Of a stretch of 64,000 nt of DNA, positions 11,527-51,722 are shown piece after piece. The DNA lies in the IMG/VR virus record IMGVR_UViG_3300006151_000005, positions 32,001 through 96,000 of that record. One strand, given 5' to 3'. The position numbers were made by a program, and so were the translations under genes. Under the pieces are notes generated by a model that did no database searches, had not been told where the DNA came from, and saw only the letters and a list, made by a program, of their open reading frames with translations. Every line of letters starts with the position of its first letter. The first letter of the stretch is position 1. Source of the DNA: a virus (lineage: Duplodnaviria > Caudoviricetes).

Positions 11527-12218
11527 CACCACGTAGCGAAATCATCCTCGGCGATAGCTTTGAGGTACTGAAATCAATGGCAGACAAAAGCGTTGACATC
11601 GCTTTATGCGATTGCCCTTACGGAATAGACATCTGCTCAAGTGGCAGACTGATGAAAGAAAAGGGTCGCGCATACAAGCCGTGGGATAAAGATGCTCCAA
11701 AAGCGGAATTTTTCACGGAGTTGCTTCGCGTAAGCAAGAACGCCATCATCTTCGGCGCAAACCATTTCATAGACCGCATACCCATCAATTCAAAGTGTTG
11801 GATTGTGTGGGATAAGGAACAGCCAGAAACATTGTCATTCGCCATGTGTGAGCTTGCCCTCACTACATTTGACAGGTCGGCAAAGATATTCAGATATAGC
11901 GCGGCGCGTCAGAGTGTAAAGGAAACACGGATACACCCCACACAAAAGCCAGTCGCCTTGTACGCATGGATATTTCAGAACTTCGCCAATCCCGGCAACT
12001 TGATTCTCGATACCCACCTCGGAAGCGGTAGTAGTCGCATTGCTGCCTATCGCATGGGCTTCGACTTCATAGGCTGCGAGATTGACCCGGAATATTACAC
12101 AGCGCAAGAGGTGCGCTTTCGCCAAGAATGTATGGGCGAACAACGTCGTGGCAATGTCGTGCTGACACAATACGAATTATTCAATAATGACCAATATGGA
12201 AAAGATAACAGTCTTTGA
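11523..12218 (+). CDS. DNA methyltransferase (N6A/N4C, beta class)
   Basis: DCPY, HPTQKP, DTHLGSGSS motifs. Confidence 0.88.
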   Translation: MTPRSEIILGDSFEVLKSMADKSVDIALCDCPYGIDICSSGRLMKEKGRAYKPWDKDAPKAEFFTELLRVSKNAIIFGANHFIDRIPINSKCWIVWDKEQPETLSFAMCELALTTFDRSAKIFRYSAARQSVKETRIHPTQKPVALYAWIFQNFANPGNLILDTHLGSGSSRIAAYRMGFDFIGCEIDPEYYTAQEVRFRQECMGEQRRGNVVLTQYELFNNDQYGKDNSL

Positions 12219-15260: not shown

Positions 15261-16019
15261 ATGGAACAAGTAATCACTGACATCATCGACAAAAAGGCGG
15301 CGAAGCAGTTTAATAAGCTGACACCGACCAAGCGCAAGGCATACCGCGCAATGCTTTATGCAGGTGCGCAGATAACCATGAACGGCTATTCAGTAAGGGA
15401 TATAGCCGCCGAAATCGGATATTCAGAAAGCGGAACATCAAAGTTGGCGCAGAAGTGGATAGAGCTGATGCGTCAGGGCGATGTTACCGTCAATCTGATT
15501 ATAGCAGCCATTCAGAAATTGCCTAAAAACAAACGTTTTCAGCACGGAAAGGAAATCGCGCCCCATGTCAAGCTAACACCCACTGTCGTAGCGGAAGAGC
15601 CAAAGGATGAAACTCCACGGCCCACACCGGCGCAGACCCCGGCACCAACGGAAAATAAGCGAAAGGGCAAGTATGTACTCGGCTTTTTCATTACACCGGA
15701 AGACGAAATGCGCGAAAGAGCCGCCATTCGTTCATCCATCCTGTTCTTTCAGACCTACGGCAAGGGCGCAAAACCGCGTATGCACGGCGAGTATTACACG
15801 CCCGGAACGCATCAGGCAAAAGACAGTGAAGATAGCAAGAAGTGGCTACCCCTTGATACAGCAGCCCTTTACTGCGGATGCAAAGCGGAAATCATCAGCA
15901 AAGCAGGTCAAAACGGCGTGATTGAACGACGTGTCTATAAGCGCAATGCCAACCGTAACTATTATGAGTATAACATCGCTGATTTAGACAAGTTTATACG
16001 CGACAATCATCTCCTCTAA
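15261..16019 (+). CDS. Putative DNA-binding protein with two HTH-like regions
   Basis: YSVRDIAAEIGYSESGTSKL and C-terminal excisionase-like WLPLDTAALYCG. Confidence 0.55.
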   Translation: MEQVITDIIDKKAAKQFNKLTPTKRKAYRAMLYAGAQITMNGYSVRDIAAEIGYSESGTSKLAQKWIELMRQGDVTVNLIIAAIQKLPKNKRFQHGKEIAPHVKLTPTVVAEEPKDETPRPTPAQTPAPTENKRKGKYVLGFFITPEDEMRERAAIRSSILFFQTYGKGAKPRMHGEYYTPGTHQAKDSEDSKKWLPLDTAALYCGCKAEIISKAGQNGVIERRVYKRNANRNYYEYNIADLDKFIRDNHLL

Positions 16020-16097
16020 CAAAGGTAATCAACTCGCAATGTGGAAGATAGCTAAGAGCTAATAAGAGTTAAAAATCAAATTTGCCCGGCGATTTAA

Positions 16098-26700: not shown

Positions 26701-29700
26701 CGCTTATCAAGTGCTTTAAGCTGCTGCTCGTAGTATTTATACAATGCGCTTGACTGGTCAACCTTTTGCATCTGCGAGTTGATAGACTTGCGGATTTCAG
26801 AAAATTCCTCGGTTGTTTTGGCGTTCTGAATCTGGCTTTCAAGGGCGGTCTTGATAGACTGCATAGCCTGACTCTGATTGCCTTTATTTCGGTTGTATTC
26901 GCCCACCATTAAGTCGTTTTTTAACTGACGATACAATCGCTTATCAACATCAGACATTGCACCCTCGCCCAACTGCGTACCATAACGGTCAATAAACTGC
27001 TGCAATAGTGCCGACTGCTCGGAATTAAGATGGTAGTTCTTGCCGCCCATCTTGAAATTGCTTCGTAGACGGGCGTTCCGTACAATCGCGTTATAGGCAT
27101 CCAAATCGGCTTTTGCCATCTTTGTGCCGGGAGTGATTTTGCCGTTCTTTCCATACTTGGCAAGAAGATTCTGCAAGGTCTGACGTTCTGCGCCGGTCGT
27201 ATTCAAGACCTGACCGCCCACATCACGGAGCGTAATCTTGATTTTGTCAAGTGTATTTAGTGCAATATCAAGATATTTGGTGTCAATGTAAGGCGTGGCT
27301 ACGGCGTTGTCAACGTCTTTCATCTTGTCTTCCGCTTGCGCTGCCTTAACCGACGTTTCATCCAGCGCAGTGTTGTCGGTTGTCGGCGTAGCTGACGATT
27401 CATCGACATCGCCAATCTTGCCTTCCGTTTGTTCGGCGGCTTCAAAAAGTTCATGTATGTTGATAGGGTCTGCCAAAGGTTTGACCGGTTTTGCATTGAT
27501 TTCATCAACCTCTTTCGATACCTTTGTCAGCTCCTCGGTCAATTTCTTGGAATCAAAGGTGGAATAATCAATTTCCGGCTGTGCCGCAGCCGCACGTTCA
27601 GCGGCATCCGCAGCGGCATTTGCTTGGGCTTGCGTCTTCTCGGTCAGTTTATCAAGCGTATTGGTTTTGTTAATAAGCTCGGAAACAAGTTTGGATGTAT
27701 CCTTGATGTCAAGAACATACTGCTCGGCAAATCCCATCTGTTTCGCCAGTGCCTTTGCATCCATGTTTGCGGTTTGGGCAATTTCCGTCTGCAAGCGGGC
27801 AATTTCTTGACGTGCCTTTACAGCGGCTGCGTTTTCAATCTTTTGACCATTCTCGGTATAGGTTACATTAGCGGCATATTCCTTTTCAGCATCCTCAAGG
27901 AGTTTGACCATTTCAGTAAGTTCAGCCTTTTTGTTTTCCACCGTACTTGCTATGGTGTCGGCCATAATCTTGGATACTTCGGCAGCTTCCCCGGATGAAT
28001 CGTTTTCAATGATTTCTTTCATTTCATCCTTGAAAGATGTAGTGGCGGCATCCTTTTCTTCCTGAATAGTTGCAAGACGATTGGCGGTCTGTCGTGCTTC
28101 GCCCTCTGCCAGAATCAGTTGGTTAAGCTGCGCACGGGCTTCATTTAACTGCTCAATCTTATCCTTTTCCTTGTCGATGTGGATACCGTATTCTTCCGCC
28201 ATCTTGATAAGCTCCTCTACGGCATCCTTGTGTACCCGGCTATCCTTGTTCACGGAGTTCATTACGGCGTATAGCGTATCGATGTTGTTTTTCAGCTTCA
28301 ACGTGGATTCGCCAAATCTTTCAGACATAGCGGATGATTCCTCAGCTTCGTCCTTAAACGACATAAATAGACCGATGACGGTTGTCAGGGCGGTAATTAT
28401 CATGCCGAAGGGATTGGTCATAAAAGCGACCTTGAGGCTATTCCATGCGTTCTTGCAGGCGTTGGTGGCCGCAGTCAGCGCATACTTTCCGATGGTCAAT
28501 GCTTTATCCTTTGCCGTGGCAAGTGCGGTCACGATTGTGCCGCGACTGGTTGCGGCGGTATTTACGTTTGTGGCCGCAGTATTGGCGGTGGTTGCGGTTG
28601 TTTCTCCAATGACGGCGGCTGTGGCGGTCTGTTTCTGCACGGCTTGCTGTGCGGTAATCGCGCCATTCAGTTCCTTTTCTGCTGTGTTTATACCCTCGGC
28701 TGCTGACTGCTGGGCGGTTATAGCGGAAGCCTGCTCCTCTACTGCCGCCATGTATTCTTCGGCGGCGGCTTTCTTATCGTCGGCATCGCCGGCGGCTTCT
28801 GCCATCTCCATCAGTTCTTTTGCAGACTCAACGCGCCTTTCCGCAGCTTCTACAAGTTGGTCGCTTGCGGCTTTCTGCATGTTCGCGCTTTCAAGTGCCG
28901 CCTGCTTTGTATCAACGAGTGCCTGTGCATAGTCGCGCTCATTCTGCAAGCGTTCAGCGGTATCATTCGTGATTATTCCGTTGGCATTGGAGTCGTTGAT
29001 GTCGGCATCAAGGCCACGCCCGGCTTCTTCGCGCTGGGTCTGCATGTCCTTGAGGTGCGTTTCATAGGTCTTCTGCGCCTCTTCTGCGATACGGCGTTCA
29101 TTCTCGGCGATGCGCTGCTGTTCCTGCTGCCATAAACGCCCCTGCTGGATTGAGTCGGCATACGTCTGGTCGATAGACCCTTCCTCAAGAGCCTTGCGTA
29201 TGTCATCGTCGTAACCCTCCATCATCTTGGCGTTCTGCATTTCCTGTATCTTGGCAAGTTCGGCATTGAAGCCATCCACGATGCCCTTTGAAGCGTCGAT
29301 AACGGATTGCTTGGCTGCGAAATTGGAAAGCATCACGGAGGTCTTGTAAACACCGAAAGCCGCCGCAGCGGTGGCGAGTACCGGAATGATTCTGCCGATA
29401 TTGTCAACAATAGTGGAAGCCGCGTCAATAACGCCCACAAGCGCACCCTCCATATTCTGACCCATGTCATTAAACATCAAGTCCATCGAGTCATTCAGCT
29501 TGGCGATTGCACCCGGTATGGTCTTCGATGCCGTTTCCGACATCTTGTAGTATTTGCCTCCCTCGCTTGTTGCGTCAAGAAAAGCCTGCTGAACCATCTC
29601 GGCTGAAATCTTGCCCTGCGACATTTCTCCCTTGAGCGCACCGATAGATTTGCCGGTCTTTTCGGATATGACCTGCAATGGCTGGAAGCCTGCGTTTACC

Positions 29701-30350
29701 ATCTGCATCAAGTCCTGACCCATCAGCTTGCCCGCTGCCGACATCTGCGAAAACGCAAGCGAAAGCGACTGAAAGCGGCGGGTATCGCCCATAGCAATAT
29801 CGCCGATAGCCTGCAAGTATCGCGGAACTTTGTCAGCGTCGATGCCGAAGCCGAGCATCATCTGTGCAGTGGAAACAGTAGGTGCAAATTCAAGCGGCGA
29901 TATTTTGGCAAACTCCTGTAATTCGGCGTTCAGCTTCTCGCCCTTACGCTTGCCAATCATCGTTTCGATAGATGCGTTCATCTGCTGGAACTGACCGCGT
30001 ATGCTTGTGATTTTGGTAAGGAACTCACCCAGACCATACACGCCGGCAAGACCGCCCACGGCCATCATCGGTCGCGTCAGTAAGTCCTGTATGCGGTTGA
30101 CCTCGGTAAATATTCCACTGAGGTTTTTCTTGATGCCAAATTCCATTTCCGCACCACTGCGCATTGCGGCCTGTGCAAGCTGACGATAACGCGCCGTGCT
30201 TTCGGCGAGTTTCTTGTTCAGTGCATCAATCGACGCGCCGGCCTGCCCCGGCCTAAAATTCTGAATTTGGGTCTTGGTCTTTGCGATTTCCTGTTGTAAA
30301 CGTATCAGTTCGGAGTAATCCGCATCTACGTCAAATGCTAAATATGGCAT
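23754..30350 (-). CDS. Tail tape measure protein (~2200 aa)
   Basis: Tape-measure domain (FAKISPLE...LQAIGDIAMGD...GKLMGQDLMQMVNAGFQPL), long Ala/coiled-coil helices, TM segments. Confidence 0.92.
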   Translation of the reverse strand: MPYLAFDVDADYSELIRLQQEIAKTKTQIQNFRPGQAGASIDALNKKLAESTARYRQLAQAAMRSGAEMEFGIKKNLSGIFTEVNRIQDLLTRPMMAVGGLAGVYGLGEFLTKITSIRGQFQQMNASIETMIGKRKGEKLNAELQEFAKISPLEFAPTVSTAQMMLGFGIDADKVPRYLQAIGDIAMGDTRRFQSLSLAFSQMSAAGKLMGQDLMQMVNAGFQPLQVISEKTGKSIGALKGEMSQGKISAEMVQQAFLDATSEGGKYYKMSETASKTIPGAIAKLNDSMDLMFNDMGQNMEGALVGVIDAASTIVDNIGRIIPVLATAAAAFGVYKTSVMLSNFAAKQSVIDASKGIVDGFNAELAKIQEMQNAKMMEGYDDDIRKALEEGSIDQTYADSIQQGRLWQQEQQRIAENERRIAEEAQKTYETHLKDMQTQREEAGRGLDADINDSNANGIITNDTAERLQNERDYAQALVDTKQAALESANMQKAASDQLVEAAERRVESAKELMEMAEAAGDADDKKAAAEEYMAAVEEQASAITAQQSAAEGINTAEKELNGAITAQQAVQKQTATAAVIGETTATTANTAATNVNTAATSRGTIVTALATAKDKALTIGKYALTAATNACKNAWNSLKVAFMTNPFGMIITALTTVIGLFMSFKDEAEESSAMSERFGESTLKLKNNIDTLYAVMNSVNKDSRVHKDAVEELIKMAEEYGIHIDKEKDKIEQLNEARAQLNQLILAEGEARQTANRLATIQEEKDAATTSFKDEMKEIIENDSSGEAAEVSKIMADTIASTVENKKAELTEMVKLLEDAEKEYAANVTYTENGQKIENAAAVKARQEIARLQTEIAQTANMDAKALAKQMGFAEQYVLDIKDTSKLVSELINKTNTLDKLTEKTQAQANAAADAAERAAAAQPEIDYSTFDSKKLTEELTKVSKEVDEINAKPVKPLADPINIHELFEAAEQTEGKIGDVDESSATPTTDNTALDETSVKAAQAEDKMKDVDNAVATPYIDTKYLDIALNTLDKIKITLRDVGGQVLNTTGAERQTLQNLLAKYGKNGKITPGTKMAKADLDAYNAIVRNARLRSNFKMGGKNYHLNSEQSALLQQFIDRYGTQLGEGAMSDVDKRLYRQLKNDLMVGEYNRNKGNQSQAMQSIKTALESQIQNAKTTEEFSEIRKSINSQMQKVDQSSALYKYYEQQLKALDKRDKSKKGNKKGGSKDDPKQRAYELRKMQLEEERRTAELLQEERNNQRELEIAQLEDNSEKEIATIKFTAEKKRQALLKEAEREAQTLEKNALQEWLKGGKGRKEYQYYAQFSDEQLKKMREDWLTQAKDNIGFDTQSQLIDVNGSTDLEARFKEDFAAMRDYLKEFGSFQQKKLAIAEEYAEKIRNAQSEGERLALQRQQRAEEEQFESNAVMNQIDWYTVFDNVGVIMRGQLEPLYEQLQKYVKTESFRQSGAENQQTVIEAMESMRQQLGSNQSWQDLSSSLMAYQKALDELRIATENDTRVTAELSRLTQVQSEAQRNLERVRNNPETSPEQLRVAQEAYENATIAVNNYGATVANSNLALQQAQNTVKSSGMMLSQTAKNVIKPVSKIYTFLSNSGFSQLADLWDAFDSLKGAIDGLKGLSAFEEASKAITDLKDAAAEGAEAFASALEDSPQLIKDAMTKLELSFEDFSDSASGAADKLSSEITGVVSEAGDAVGEASQAVGSMAKGLGKAGLIAGLIASILKILDILKDGLGPLITAILDSILNAISGIIGNILNFKEGLFRQIGESLYKGILGIFKSIFTLGGWFDWWGNGESDKHLEEDIERLTATNEALRKAVYNLADEMRDAATADMGALYQQQKGDIEKAMKNTQEMMSRSGAAYSNGFLGVGGYKSSNHKINKGMSGDDWSRISAIVGKSVRSAGDFWNLTSEQMAKVAQSAPDLYAKIKGLADDGHKDAAQFMDEYIEYYKELEELENAFRESLTDVSFDSVKDEFKSMLLDMESDSEDFANNFEKMMQQAVINSLMNSKYNEKLKQWYEDFVAAMDDQDGLTAAEQERLKRDWDNIVGDAVNDRNNLKKAMGWDGSSEQQSSSRTLEGMSQDTGNAIEGRLTALQIAVESIRANENQHTLSLADMTDELLQIAMEYSRFNVHQDNIERQLAKIYIELQTISENTGAIVKPIQTMQADIAEIKKNTKNI

Positions 30351-32810: not shown

Positions 32811-32883
32811 CGCGGGTTGGAGCAGTTGGAAGCTCGCCAGTTTAACTTGCTGGAGGTCGTCGGTTCGAGTCCGACACCCGCTA
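32811..32883 (+). tRNA. Initiator-type tRNA with Val anticodon AAC
   Basis: Cloverleaf CGCGGGT/ACCCGCT+A (C1xU72 mismatch, G2:C71, C3:G70, A73); D-stem GAGC/GCTC (A11:U24); anticodon stem CCAGT/GCTGG with loop TTAACTT (AAC at 32844-32846); T-arm GTCGG-TTCGAGT-CCGAC; CCA not encoded. Confidence 0.85.
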
Positions 32884-33283: not shown

Positions 33284-33310
33284 TCATTAACCCTTTAACA
33301 CTATAAGTGA

Positions 33311-33511
33311 GTTAGACGTAGAATTGATAACAACTATGGCCCCCGTCGGAACATGAACGGTGCCGGTGCCGGTGGCCGACTCGTAGCCCGTCGCACCCCT
33401 GCGGGCGTAGTTGCTGGTCGTAGCCAGCTCGGAAATCGTGAACAGCGTCGCGCTGACCTCCGCGCAGCCTTTGCTGACCAAATCCGCGCCGCTGGTGGAA
33501 CAACCGGCTAA
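33311..33511 (+). CDS. Arg/Gly-rich small protein with putative GTT start
   Basis: VRRRIDNNYGPRRNMNGAGAGGRLVARR...GGTTG*; in-frame TGA immediately before GTT; fills the gap between ASCH and the PAPS-reductase-like gene. Confidence 0.65.
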   Translation, partial: VRRRIDNNYGPRRNMNGAGAGGRLVARRTPAGVVAGRSQLGNREQRRADLRAAFADQIRAAGGTTG

Positions 33512-35737: not shown

Positions 35738-35743
35738 TAGCGA

Positions 35744-36430
35744 GTTAAAAAGCCACGTAAGACAGATTATAACGCGAGAGTCACAAAGGCACTCAAGGGA
35801 AAGGGCGTACCTCACCTTGAAGAGCCGATGTACCGCGTATCCGCGTCGGCTTTTATAAAGGCTATAAGACGCGGCAAGGCATCGCAAGGCAGGAACGGCT
35901 GGATGGTTGACCTGCATAGCAAAAGCGAATACAAGCGGATGCGATGCTTTCTTACTCCGGACGGAAAGACAGGTGTAGCGATAAAACGCGATGGGGATGT
36001 AGTGTCTGTATTCTCCACCAGCGGAAAACGAGGCGCAATGGCAAAAATCATACCGTTTGCGGTCGCTAATGGTGGTCGCAAACTGGATTGTTATGCTTTC
36101 TCGGATGGCCGCAGTTCACTTCACAACATGTACGGAAGATTCGGCGCAAAGGCTCACGGCAAAATGACCTTTGACCCGCAATATAATCCTGTTTTCCAAC
36201 GCACGGCGCAGGCCAATCCCGGTATGCGCAGACCCTCTCATGTCGTGGCGATGACGCTGCCGGGCAGTCTTGCCGGTGTCATGCGGGCTTACAACGCTGA
36301 CAGGAAGATTGACCTTGGGCGCGTGAGGTCGTATAATGATTACGACAAGATGATGGATGACCGAAACGCGCATCTTGCACTACGCGGAAAGTCAAGCGGT
36401 GTCAGAGGCGCACTTGGCGGCGGTAAATAA
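35744..36430 (+). CDS. Basic protein (possible GNAT-like fold) with putative GTT start
   Basis: Frame opens TGA TAG CGA GTT AAA AAG... = VKKPRKTDYNARVTKALKGKGVPHLEEP then MYRV (track ORF 35828); no ATG/GTG/TTG in these 28 codons. Confidence 0.65.
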   Translation, partial: VKKPRKTDYNARVTKALKGKGVPHLEEPMYRVSASAFIKAIRRGKASQGRNGWMVDLHSKSEYKRMRCFLTPDGKTGVAIKRDGDVVSVFSTSGKRGAMAKIIPFAVANGGRKLDCYAFSDGRSSLHNMYGRFGAKAHGKMTFDPQYNPVFQRTAQANPGMRRPSHVVAMTLPGSLAGVMRAYNADRKIDLGRVRSYNDYDKMMDDRNAHLALRGKSSGVRGALGGGK

Positions 36431-37184: not shown

Positions 37185-37205
37185 TCACCCTTAAAATACA
37201 AGATA

Positions 37206-37493
37206 GTTAGACGCAGACGTACACCATCAACAAGAACTATGGCATACTACACCGGTAGCTATGCAGACCAGAACATGATGTCACCATACGGAATGGGATA
37301 TTCTCAGTCACAGGTGGCAATCAACAATCGCGCACAGGCTCTCCGTCGTCGTGTTGGCGATATGAACGTTTCATCATCCCAACGGCAAAGGTATTACGAT
37401 ATAATAGGCCGAGCCAATGGCAATATGTTTCAGGCAATAAGAACTGCAACGGGGGGGCAAATGACCACTTCCCAATTAGGTTATGCGTGTTAG
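37206..37493 (+). CDS. Small Arg/Gln-rich protein with putative GTT start
   Basis: GTT AGA CGC AGA CGT... = VRRRRTPSTRT in frame with track ORF 37239; same GTTAGACG opening as 33311. Confidence 0.55.
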   Translation, partial: VRRRRTPSTRTMAYYTGSYADQNMMSPYGMGYSQSQVAINNRAQALRRRVGDMNVSSSQRQRYYDIIGRANGNMFQAIRTATGGQMTTSQLGYAC

Positions 37494-37553
37494 AGAACCG
37501 GTCATCTCGCCGTCACATGACGGAAATAGCAAGTTCGACTCTTGCACACGCAG
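37484..37553 (+). tRNA. tRNA-like RNA with a shrunken anticodon loop
   Basis: TGCGTGT/ACACGCA acceptor; GAGA/TCTC D-stem; CCGTC-ACAT-GACGG; GCAAG-TTCGACT-CTTGC T-arm. Confidence 0.7.
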
Positions 37554-37584
37554 CATAGAAGATTAAAATTTCATTATCACGACG

Positions 37585-39562: not shown

Positions 39563-41020
39563 ATGAATAACTACTTACAGCAAATCTTAACCTATTTCCG
39601 AAACCTCACGCTAAATGCGTCCGGGGTTAGCCGCGACCTGTATCAGCTTTTGCAGGATAAGGACATCAGCCGCGCATTGGATATGCTCCAGAACCGCGAT
39701 GATGAAGTTGACCAAGCAATCAAGGAGTATAATCCGCAGACGCATGACGTGATGAAACGCCCCAACAAATTCCGTAAAGGCGATGACCCCTATATCACGG
39801 AAAAGTTGCCACGCACACGCGCCCGCTACATCAACGACATCGAGCTATTCTTCTTGCTCGGCAATCCTATTGAATGGAAGAAAGAAGAGGGCGACGATGA
39901 AGCCTTTTCGCTATTCACAGATTTTCTGGAAGAGCAGCACTTCAATTCACGCATCCGTCAGGCGAAACGACTTGCCGGCGCGGAAACCGAGTCAGCCCTT
40001 ATCGCGCACATCTACCGCGATGATGATACAGGCGAGCGTCGCGTCAAGCTGAATGTATTGGCGCGTTCCAAAGGCTATCGCCTGCGCCCACTGTTCGACA
40101 CCATCGGCAACATGATCGCCTTTGCATACGGATACGTGACGAAAGAACATGGCCGCAGTATTCAGCACTGGGATTTCCAAACACCCAAAATCCTTGCTTA
40201 CTGCCGTAAGGCGCAAATCGGATGGGAAGTCGAAATCTATCCCAATCCCACCGGCAAGATAAACGTCATCTACTTTCAGCAGCCAAAGGCATGGGATGGC
40301 GCGGAAGCCCGCATCAACCGCGAGGAGATGCTTGACAGTAAGACCGGCGACACCAACAATTACTTTTCCGACCCCATCGCCGCCGCCACTGCCGACGTCA
40401 TTCAGACCATGACCGACCCCAACAAGCCCGGAAAGCTCATTCAGCTTACAGGCGAAAAGTCAAGGTTTGAGTACGTCAACCCACCGCAGGCATCGCAGAC
40501 ACGCGACGCGGAAAAATCCGACCTTTCAAAGAGCATCCTTTTTGATACCTACACCCCGGATTTTGACACCGAGGCCATGCGTGGCTTCGGCACGCTTTCC
40601 GGTGTGGCAATCCGCAACGCTTTCATTCTTGGCTACATCAAGCGCGACAACCGCAAAGAAATCTACGATGAACTTGTGGGCCGTTTCCGCAATATCGTTA
40701 TCGCCATACTTGCATACGAGCATCCCGATAAGAGAAAAGCTCTGGAGTCACTCAAAATCAAATTTGAATTTGCGGAACCATTCGCCGATGACAAGCAGGC
40801 GAAGTGGCAGTCCATCGCAAGCCTGTATCAAGCCGGTCTGATTTCGTTGGAAACCGCCGTGACCATGTTGTCGCTGACCGATGCACCAGAAGAAGAAATC
40901 GCTCGCCTCCTCGCGGCTTCCGCACAGAAGCAACAGCAGGGTCAGCAGCCTTCCGCAAACAAAGAAGACAATCCGGCACAACCCCCTGTAAATATTCCGC
41001 GAGAACCTATATCAGCATAA
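39563..41020 (+). CDS. Portal protein (SPP1 gp6-like)
   Basis: Follows TerL; FLLGNPI, NNYFSDP, LSGVAI, ISLETA...EEEIARL. Confidence 0.85.
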   Translation: MNNYLQQILTYFRNLTLNASGVSRDLYQLLQDKDISRALDMLQNRDDEVDQAIKEYNPQTHDVMKRPNKFRKGDDPYITEKLPRTRARYINDIELFFLLGNPIEWKKEEGDDEAFSLFTDFLEEQHFNSRIRQAKRLAGAETESALIAHIYRDDDTGERRVKLNVLARSKGYRLRPLFDTIGNMIAFAYGYVTKEHGRSIQHWDFQTPKILAYCRKAQIGWEVEIYPNPTGKINVIYFQQPKAWDGAEARINREEMLDSKTGDTNNYFSDPIAAATADVIQTMTDPNKPGKLIQLTGEKSRFEYVNPPQASQTRDAEKSDLSKSILFDTYTPDFDTEAMRGFGTLSGVAIRNAFILGYIKRDNRKEIYDELVGRFRNIVIAILAYEHPDKRKALESLKIKFEFAEPFADDKQAKWQSIASLYQAGLISLETAVTMLSLTDAPEEEIARLLAASAQKQQQGQQPSANKEDNPAQPPVNIPREPISA

Positions 41021-41176
41021 TATCTGCCATTGTTGTCATATCTGGATGCGTCACGTCTGAGTTAAAGGCGTGGCGCATTGTTTTACGCTATCAGCGCAAA
41101 ATCAGCGCGTTAAAGCAAACACTTTTATTAACAATAGTTAAAAGTAAGTATTTACTTTAATATTTTCGCTAAAATA

Positions 41177-50175: not shown

Positions 50176-51456
50176 TCATTGTTGTTTGATTTCAGCAGTC
50201 ACGCCGTCAGTGCCGGTCACGTCTGCCGGATTAATCGCTTTCGCGGAATCGGGATTTTCAACAGCCATCGACAATTCTAAATCGCAGAAGCCTTTGCAAG
50301 CTCCGCGATAGCCGTTGAAAAATTCAATGGCGGTCATGCGTCGCTTGTTCGGCATCTGCAATTCAAGCACGGAAATAAGCTCGTCGCCACAGGCGATGTA
50401 TAACTTGCGGTCTTGCCAGAACAACTCGCCGGGTGCATGATAGCCACGCGGTATGCCGGTCTTTTCCGTCTTGAATATCTTGACGCTTATTGCCTGCTTT
50501 CCAAGCATTGCCAGCGAAGTCCATGCCGATGGGATGGGCGTAAGTGCGCGTATGAAGTCATAGACGTAATTGGCAGGCTTGAGCCACGGAATGATGCAGT
50601 CCTTTCGGTGTAGCTTCGGCGCGTAGCAGGGCTGGATGAAGTCGCAGATAAGCTCCGATTGTGGGATGGGTCTGCAAGAATGGGCTATGCGCTGAATTGC
50701 ATCGTCCATCATTTCCGCACCGGCTATGCGCAATTTGATGTGAACGTCTTCCGCGTTGTCATCCTCATCGATGCCGATGGCGAGATTGTTGATGATGCCG
50801 CCAGTATCGATTTTGTCTTCAAGCATGAACGTAGTCACGCCGGTCATGCTGTTACCGTCCTTGATAGCGGATGCGATGGTGGAAGCACCGCGATACATGG
50901 GCAGCATGGACGAATGGAGATTGATTGTTCCCCACTTCGGAATGGTGTATAGCGCACGTGGCAGTATTCTGAACTCCACCACTACGCCAAGCGTAGCATG
51001 AAGATTGTGGATGTGCCGCAGAAACCTGTTGGAGTCGAGCTTCCGTGGCTGAAAAACAAGGATACCCATAGACTCTGCATAGACCTTGACCGCAGACTTG
51101 CGCACGACCTTTCCGCGACCGAAGGGCTTATCCTCCATCGTTACCACGGCGGCGACATCATAGCCGCGCTCTACAAGTATCTTGAGGGTTGGTAGGGCGA
51201 ACTGTCCGTTTCCGAAAAACACGATGCGGATGCCCTTCCGTTCTACCGGCTTGGACGAGTCGTATTCCGGATAGGCTACGATTTCCGTTTCATCAGCAGC
51301 CGTGTAACCGCCATTACGCAGACGCACCAAGTATGAGCCATCTTCTACCGGGTATAGAATCTGACCCTGACTTAGTATTCCTTTGTCTTCATTCGCGCAT
51401 AACAGGCTTGATGGAACTTGTACCGATTGCCCTACGCGATAGATGGGCGTTTTCAT
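50176..51456 (-). CDS. fmt: Methionyl-tRNA formyltransferase with ~75-aa N-terminal extension
   Basis: IVFFGNGQFA, VVTMEDKPFGRG, FQP, INLHSSMLPMYRGA, GVTTF...IDTG, YAPKL, IRALTPIPSAW, LQMPNKRRM: both Fmt domains; ATGA-coupled to the XRE gene. Confidence 0.9.
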   Translation of the reverse strand: MKTPIYRVGQSVQVPSSLLCANEDKGILSQGQILYPVEDGSYLVRLRNGGYTAADETEIVAYPEYDSSKPVERKGIRIVFFGNGQFALPTLKILVERGYDVAAVVTMEDKPFGRGKVVRKSAVKVYAESMGILVFQPRKLDSNRFLRHIHNLHATLGVVVEFRILPRALYTIPKWGTINLHSSMLPMYRGASTIASAIKDGNSMTGVTTFMLEDKIDTGGIINNLAIGIDEDDNAEDVHIKLRIAGAEMMDDAIQRIAHSCRPIPQSELICDFIQPCYAPKLHRKDCIIPWLKPANYVYDFIRALTPIPSAWTSLAMLGKQAISVKIFKTEKTGIPRGYHAPGELFWQDRKLYIACGDELISVLELQMPNKRRMTAIEFFNGYRGACKGFCDLELSMAVENPDSAKAINPADVTGTDGVTAEIKQQ

Positions 51457-51722
51457 CGCGGTGTGGCTGTCTTGATGTCGATGCGCGAGCCGCACTGGGG
51501 GCAGATGATTGTCGCCGGGTTGGGCGCAAGGTAATCCGTGAAAAGCGAAGCCACGGGTACGTCAAGGGCTTCCGCAATCTTCTCAAGTGTTGAAATGTTC
51601 GGATTGTTCTTTTCGTTCACGATGCCGCCGAGTGTCTGCGGCGTGATTTCCATCTTGTCCGCAAGCTGTTTGAGGGTCATCCCCTTTGAAGCAACGATTG
51701 CTTTAATTCTGAACTTTGACAT
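51453..51722 (-). CDS. XRE HTH regulator with zinc ribbon (paralogue 3)
   Basis: TLKQLADKMEITPQTLG...PNISTLEKIAEALDV...CPQCG. Confidence 0.85.
   Translation of the reverse strand: MSKFRIKAIVASKGMTLKQLADKMEITPQTLGGIVNEKNNPNISTLEKIAEALDVPVASLFTDYLAPNPATIICPQCGSRIDIKTATPR

Follow-up and report, generated by a model that had tools for sequence, protein, structure and literature searches.

A phage initiator-type tRNA with a valine anticodon and a candidate five-nucleotide start signal that its loop may read

Gut phages encode suppressor tRNAs that recode stop codons in their late genes. At the step of initiation, Hollerer & Jeschek (NAR 2023) assayed tRNAfMet carrying A37, A37G or A37U against ~45,000 leaders in E. 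coli, and expression rose when the base at −1 was complementary to position 37, G.U wobble included (PMC10018350). A compensatory −1:37 test in chloroplasts was made by Esposito et al. (2003), as cited in that paper (PMC10018350). The Jaschke group reported that an engineered i-tRNA(AAC) initiates at GUU and gives valine and formyl-valine N-termini, and that its formylation and deformylation are both inefficient, with formylation appearing as a bottleneck (bioRxiv 10.1101/2021.05.25.445580). Among the three G:C pairs of the initiator anticodon stem, G30:C40 was found by Shetty et al. to be the essential one in E. coli (PMC5389676). A literature search of limited coverage returned no natural phage initiator tRNA with a valine anticodon.

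Here we describe a phage tRNA gene that has an initiator body and the valine anticodon AAC, together with the GTT-starting genes around it. The analysed stretch of 64,000 nucleotides (the window) comprises bases 32001-96000 of a 105.5-kb IMG/VR phage record, and megablast gave no match to the window region among GenBank phages. The features discussed below are collected in Table 1.

Table 1. Positions of the features, with the anticodon loops and starts used for comparison. Coordinates are those of the window unless a phage is named.
Feature	Position	Strand	Basis or detail
Phage tRNA, initiator body, valine anticodon AAC	32811..32883	+	ARAGORN; Rfam RF00005, 48.6 bits; sequence reading
Anticodon loop U32 U33 A34 A35 C36 U37 U38 (TTAACTT)	32842..32848	+	Sequence reading
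Anticodon AAC	32844-32846	+	ARAGORN; sequence reading
U37 U38, proposed partners of mRNA −1 A and −2 G	32847..32848	+	Complementary to GA before GUY starts
GA-GTT-AG, start of 66-aa arginine-rich protein (GTT 33311)	33309..33315	+	In-frame TGA immediately upstream; orthologs
GA-GTT-AA, start of 228-aa protein (GTT 35744)	35742..35748	+	Frame opens one codon upstream
TA-GTT-AG, probable start of 95-aa protein (GTT 37206)	37204..37210	+	First codons resemble those at 33311
TGA-GTT, start of capsid gene	65961 (beyond window)		Pfam Phage_cap_E
GA-GTT-GA, start of tail gene	68775 (beyond window)		
GA-GTT-AA, sixth GTT start	−11019 (outside window)		
Methionyl-tRNA formyltransferase-type (Fmt) gene	50176..51456	−	Pfam Formyl_trans_N 3.3e-28, Formyl_trans_C 1e-17
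G018, AG-GTT, candidate start	2814 (G018)		ggagagatagcAG GTT; frame opens one codon upstream
G018, GG-GTT, candidate start	8130 (G018)		aaggagctcttGG GTT
G018, TG-GTT, candidate start	11841 (G018)		aaggagtatTG GTT; ambiguous, TTG directly upstream
G018, AG-GTT, candidate start of prohead protease-capsid fusion	27887 (gene 27887-30128; G018)		ggagaggagaaaAG GTT
Loop of family B			CC-AAC-GG
Loop of G016			UU-GAC-GA (G37 A38)
Loop of G017			CC-AAC-AC (A37 C38)
Loop of G018			AU-AAC-CU (C37 U38); all three canonical G:C pairs

The tRNA gene and its relatives

Initiator tRNAs lack a Watson-Crick 1:72 pair, and the acceptor stem here (CGCGGGU/ACCCGCU) begins with a C1xU72 mismatch followed by G2:C71 and C3:G70; relatives carry C1xC72 or C1xA72, none of them paired. 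The D stem (GAGC/GCUC) gives A11:U24, the purine 11:pyrimidine 24 arrangement of initiators, and we take the D-arm, variable loop and T-arm to be close to those of bacterial tRNAfMet. The anticodon stem (C27-G43, C28-G42, A29-U41, G30-C40, U31.G39) keeps the middle G30:C40 alone out of the three initiator pairs at 29:41, 30:40 and 31:39, and the anticodon is AAC rather than CAU. Measured against an elongator tRNA-Val, the molecule has the expected A35, C36 and A73, and it has C1xU72 and U37 where a paired 1:72 and a purine 37 would be expected. A35 and C36 are the main identity elements for valyl-tRNA synthetase, with A73 in addition, as established in E. coli; A73 is the discriminator base here, and the tRNA is most likely charged with valine. 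The first-pass annotation had placed the loop UUAACUU, with U at both 37 and 38, at the coordinates given in Table 1, and reading of the sequence, within a tRNA that both ARAGORN and Rfam call, agrees with it to the base.

The family was delimited by pattern searches. With the loop left free, an initiator-type D-arm together with AAC was found in 24 viral contigs; 13 of these are close relatives of the window, in which the anticodon stem-loop is identical, T-stem changes are compensatory and position 72 is U or C, a mismatch every time. A sister tRNA with anticodon GAC (loop UU-GAC-UU, U31.G39) occurs in some of the relatives whose capsid gene starts with ATG, and relatives with the GAC anticodon have C30:G40. 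A pattern of the loop UU-NAC-UU plus T-arm matched at least 100 IMG/VR viral contigs and 37 contigs of GTDB genomes, nearly all of the latter Bacteroidales (Bacteroides, Parabacteroides, Prevotella, Muribaculaceae); this pattern itself fixed the loop, and the loop-free search shows invariance solely for the 13 AAC-family contigs. Stems covary among the UU-NAC-UU tRNAs. The Bacteroidales bias of these contigs is in keeping with hosts that rely little on Shine-Dalgarno signals.

Four further loop types with a base other than U at position 37 were found by pattern search among initiator-bodied tRNAs with RAC anticodons (Table 1). Family B consists of ~50-kb phages with an A1xC72 mismatch and the loop C32 C33 AAC G37 G38 (members L002, L008, L013-L018, L020, L023 and L025, and G001-G003, i.e., L047-L055), with CU-AAC-AG in the variants L190 and L208. 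In G018 the AAC initiator tRNA combines C37 with three G:C pairs and U1xU72, and its gene lies 35 nt downstream of the protease-capsid gene. Initiator-bodied tRNA(AAC) genes with C37 were also seen on soil and sediment metagenome contigs (L189, L193, L194, L196, L197, L200, L201, L203, L204, L206 and L210), with the loops UU-AAC-CC, UC-AAC-CU, CC-AAC-CU and UC-AAC-CA; a pyrimidine at position 37 thus recurs in this class outside the Bacteroidales phages.

The window phage also encodes an Fmt-type protein, which likely formylates the charged tRNA. About 75 extra N-terminal residues precede its Formyl_trans_N domain, and the start of the gene overlaps the stop of an HTH_3 (Cro/C1-type) gene at 51453-51722 (−).

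GTT and GTC start codons and their match to the anticodon

Orthologs of the 66-aa protein adjoin the tRNA gene at 88 loci, 70 with a GAC tRNA and 18 with an AAC tRNA. The gene starts with GTC at 68 of the 70 GAC loci and with GTT at 15 of the 18 AAC loci, the other three using an upstream ATG, so that start codon and anticodon agree (GTC with GAC, GTT with AAC) in 83/88. This tracking of the anticodon by the start codon of a small basic-protein gene is strong comparative evidence that the tRNAs read such starts. The capsid gene gives a second comparison. Its frame has no ATG for 92 codons, all of which score strongly as coding; the first aligned codon is GTT in 12 of 18 related viral capsid loci (VKQSFYFDY), and exactly the same codon is ATG in the six more distant ones (MEKSFYFEY). 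At 35744 the next canonical start is 28 codons downstream, and an ortholog of 40% identity keeps GA-GTT-AA (leader tgtaGA). The weakest of the six GTT starts is 37206, where an ATG follows 11 codons downstream and a search for a diverged ortholog found none; its first four codons, GTT AGA CGC AGA, are close to the GTT AGA CGT AGA of 33311.

On this comparative sequence evidence we regard the GTT starts as real. With GTT standing in for ATG in the capsid gene and the codon-anticodon match across the 66-aa protein loci, use at start codons is seen comparatively, and the tRNA very probably serves as an initiator for GUU. The GUU-started genes are most likely a handful of late or structural ones, namely those for the major capsid protein, the major tail protein and small basic proteins. 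GTT-ATG tandems were considered as evidence of dual starts and rejected, being common across these genomes and set in varied contexts.

Several other sequence features were noted around these genes. The GTT starts 33311 and 68775 share a leader motif, TTAACCC(T/C)TTAACAC, placed 10-15 nt before them (window 33287-33301, and L026 4745-4760, corresponding to window 68745-68760). Similar sequences precede further GTT starts and recur in relatives (ctaacccctaat, ccaccctttaaaac), and the motif may function as a late promoter or as an element of the leader. Two more GAGTTAA sites on the + strand, at 16066-16072 and 41059-41065, lie just past the ends of genes (15261-16019 and 39563-41020) and open frames of only 9 and 26 codons; they could be chance occurrences or short leader peptides. 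Right after the GTT-start gene at 37206-37493, at 37484-37554 (+), ARAGORN reports a 71-nt 'tRNA-???' whose anticodon consists of two bases (ca), and the call recurs at the same relative position in the related loci L005 and L009; Rfam at the gathering score gave no match for 37484-37554.

The context of the starts and how it may be read

The two bases before the GTT starts are strongly biased. Positions −2/−1 are GA in five of the six GTT starts of the genome and TA in the sixth, compared with GA in 7 of 142 ATG genes (4.9%; A at −1, 36%; G at −2, 12%), an enrichment with a binomial P of 1.7e-6. An A at −1 thus stands opposite U37 in 6/6 GTT-start genes; A(−1) is complementary to U37 by Watson-Crick pairing and G(−2) to U38 by wobble. 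The first-pass annotation had quoted the contexts of 33311 (GA-GTT-AG), 35744 (GA-GTT-AA) and 37206 (TA-GTT-AG), which read as it gave them, and had made its proposal depend on conservation of the −1 base among homologous starts. Such conservation was found: the small-protein gene has 29 distinct contexts, 28 of them with A at −1 and 28 with G at −2, and 12/12 GTT-starting capsid orthologs have A at −1. GA persists where the flanks have diverged, both in capsid leaders (...tatctGA, ...aatcaGA, ...taaatcaGA) and in tail leaders (acacGA, aaacGA, taacGA), and ATG-starting orthologs have CG, TA, AG, AA, CT or TT at −2/−1 instead. Positions −5 to −3 (GCT) of the small-protein gene are conserved as well, and part of the conservation there may be inherited rather than selected. 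With good confidence, we consider that GA contributes functionally to the start signal. Elsewhere in the genome GAGTT shows no depletion (58 sites observed versus 45 expected, + strand), which makes the pentamer look necessary yet insufficient for initiation. A search for genome-wide avoidance of in-frame NGA-GTT gave no specific signal, depletion being no stronger than for NGA-GTC, NGA-GTA or NGA-GTG.

We propose that the start signal is GAGUY and that it is read by tRNA positions 34-38 of the phage valine-type GUU initiator, and we put the probability of this reading at roughly 0.55. For GAGUU, G(+1) would pair with C36, the two U's with A35 and A34, A(−1) with U37 and G(−2) with U38. This added pairing would strengthen the weak helix that a non-AUG codon forms with a tRNA that has no purine-37 stack and lacks two of the three initiator G:C pairs, and it would set the start GUUs apart from ~400 internal valine GUU codons in Bacteroidales hosts with little Shine-Dalgarno use. 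The step on which this turns, that GA acts through pairing with U37 and U38, we give even odds or marginally better.

An independent lineage bears on that step. G018 (L184/L185; IMGVR_UViG_3300031576_000166) is a 39-kb soil phage of 54% GC, unrelated to the window phage, with four candidate GTT starts (Table 1), each preceded by a Shine-Dalgarno-like motif. At 27887, 13 homologs of 36-45% identity are conserved well upstream of the first canonical in-frame start, so the protein needs a start upstream of that codon; the JGI gene call for this protease-capsid protein is 68 residues short. At 2814 a canonical start follows only after another 35 codons, and the N-terminus resembles a signal peptide. 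The base at −1 is G in 4/4 candidate GTT starts and in 4/28 ATG genes, and the −2 bases, opposite U38, are A, G, A and T. G(−1) opposite C37 is the compensatory change that the pairing model predicts: one change, from U37/A to C37/G, in a single independent lineage with four sites, one of them ambiguous. IMG/VR relatives of the protease-capsid protein were limited to the contig itself. A truncated homolog, P0014, was considered as a further case of this type and rejected, as it starts at TTG and has no tRNA nearby. On the C37 soil and metagenome contigs (L189-L210), scans for Shine-Dalgarno motifs plus GTT and for GC3 periodicity gave noise, the contigs being too short or GC-rich.

The explanation that competes best, though we think it unlikely, accepts GA as a genuine part of the start signal and has it act other than through tRNA pairing, by stacking of purines on the first codon-anticodon pair, ribosomal E-site contacts or a phage factor; U37 and U38 could then serve to avoid position-37 modification enzymes, to evade host anticodon-loop nucleases or to bar the tRNA from elongation. 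The −2 position speaks for it and against pairing alone, since pairing with U38 should admit A(−2) just as readily as G, and the base is almost always G. Purines occupy −1 in both the U37 and the C37 lineages, so stacking fits there too; what stacking does not predict, and Watson-Crick pairing does, is that −1 goes from A to G as 37 goes from U to C. Another point in its favour comes from G017 (L181), an A37 lineage, whose one credible GTT start, at 12116, appears to be that of the small terminase subunit (Sf6_terminase/HTH): a conserved GRP..TPE motif is encoded ahead of every canonical start in that gene. The context there is CA at −2/−1 opposite A37 C38, without complementarity, at this single site; initiators with a purine at 37 may be able to do without the additional pair. 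Phage tRNAs with altered anticodon loops that escape host nucleases (PMC10264068) also suit this explanation, and −1:37 pairing shown experimentally for tRNAfMet variants counts against it (PMC10018350).

The remaining purine-37 phages were searched as well, and three purine-37 lineages gave no usable GTY starts. In family B no GTT start emerged from ORF maps, a 3-periodic Markov coding score, frame scans and genome comparison; a search for CCGTTGG or CTGTTAG sites gave no complementary start, and in all genes of any size an ATG stands close to where the frame opens. In G016 (GAC, G37 A38) no convincing GTY start was found.

That GA is a functionless inheritance, with U37 and U38 neutral or degenerate, is improbable. 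Many of the contigs are close relatives, and the GCTGA block upstream of the small-protein gene is conserved whole, as shared descent would have it. Against this, six different genes of one genome share the context (P ~2e-6), GA outlasts the turnover of neighbouring bases and a fall to 40% protein identity, and it is lost whenever the start is ATG; the UU-NAC-UU loop, which the search pattern fixed, also recurs with covarying stems in at least 100 viral and 37 genome contigs.

The bases after the start codon behave differently from those before it. In the 29 contexts of the small-protein gene, +4 is G in 16, A in 8 and C in 5, and +5 is C in 14, A in 9 and G in 6; capsid orthologs have AA, AA and AC. 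ATG genes of the same genome have purines at 80% of +4 and 59% of +5 positions. Four U's flank the anticodon, so any purine counts as a 'pair' and ~10% of ordinary starts would score 7/7. In canonical tRNA loops U33 forms the U-turn. The full version in the first-pass annotation, in which all seven loop nucleotides pair, U33 with +4 and U32 with +5 included, is therefore very improbable: the three window starts it cited do carry A(+4) followed by a purine, but orthologous starts vary at both positions, the purine frequencies equal those of the ATG background, and U33 is committed to the U-turn and not free to pair. A is moreover enriched at position 4 of coding sequences in bacteria generally (PMC5850271). 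Judged from these alignments, +4 and +5 lie outside the start signal, which is a five-nucleotide and not a seven-nucleotide word.

Of the proposed complementarity between the loop and the whole GUU context, then, the 5' half (−1 and −2) stands and the 3' half falls. The broader idea that extended pairing marks the start GUUs keeps the conservation and specificity of GA (28/29 contexts; 5/6 versus 7/142 starts) on its side and loses the +4/+5 part, and pairing itself is what we infer from these patterns. More tentatively, at a little under even odds, the Bacteroidales phages and, independently, at least one soil phage may each run a private initiation code in which positions 34-38 of a valine-type, pyrimidine-37 initiator pair without a gap with a start word of 4-5 nt (GAGUY with U37U38, RGGUU with C37U38), helped by a phage Fmt and orthogonal to the host's AUG and tRNAfMet.

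Comparison with known initiation and recoding systems

Compared with canonical tRNAfMet, the phage tRNA shares the 1:72 mismatch, A11:U24, A73, G30:C40 and a near-identical D-arm, variable loop and T-arm; it differs in having AAC instead of CAU, U37 instead of A, and one of the three G:C pairs. Position 72 is A in canonical tRNAfMet and U or C in the phage tRNAs.

The engineered i-tRNA(AAC) resembles the phage tRNA in its initiator body, AAC anticodon and GUU starts. It keeps the tRNAfMet loop (A37) and three G:C pairs, whereas the phage tRNA has U37 U38, U31.G39, G30:C40 only and a fixed GA before its starts. Formylation appears as a bottleneck in the engineered system, and the phage brings its own Fmt. 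The phage loop, the GA context and the formyltransferase are leads for improving orthogonal i-tRNA(AAC)/GUU systems. GUY starts would also help to annotate phage genes truncated by gene callers, such as the G018 protease-capsid gene in the JGI call.

The −1:37 pairing described for tRNAfMet is alike in that the base preceding the start codon is complementary to position 37. There A37 pairs with U(−1), engineered variants were used and the effect is a modest, statistical one; on the phage side a pyrimidine occupies position 37, the context hardly varies, −2/38 is matched as well, the codon is GUY and the gene is a natural phage one. Such −1:37 pairing has long been debated and was lately backed statistically by engineered tRNAs, and here nature appears to depend on it. 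With a near-invariant context tied to a pyrimidine 37, almost never seen in tRNAs, clean mutants of large effect are feasible. The proposed reading suggests how a ribosome without Shine-Dalgarno guidance could tell a start GUU from hundreds of internal valine codons; if it is true, a few late genes would carry a natural start signal of five nucleotides that puts their initiation under phage control.

The gut-phage suppressor tRNAs offer the remaining parallel, as in both cases a phage tRNA gives a private codon reading in late or structural genes. The suppressors act in elongation at stop codons, and the phage AAC tRNA would act at initiation, on a sense codon.
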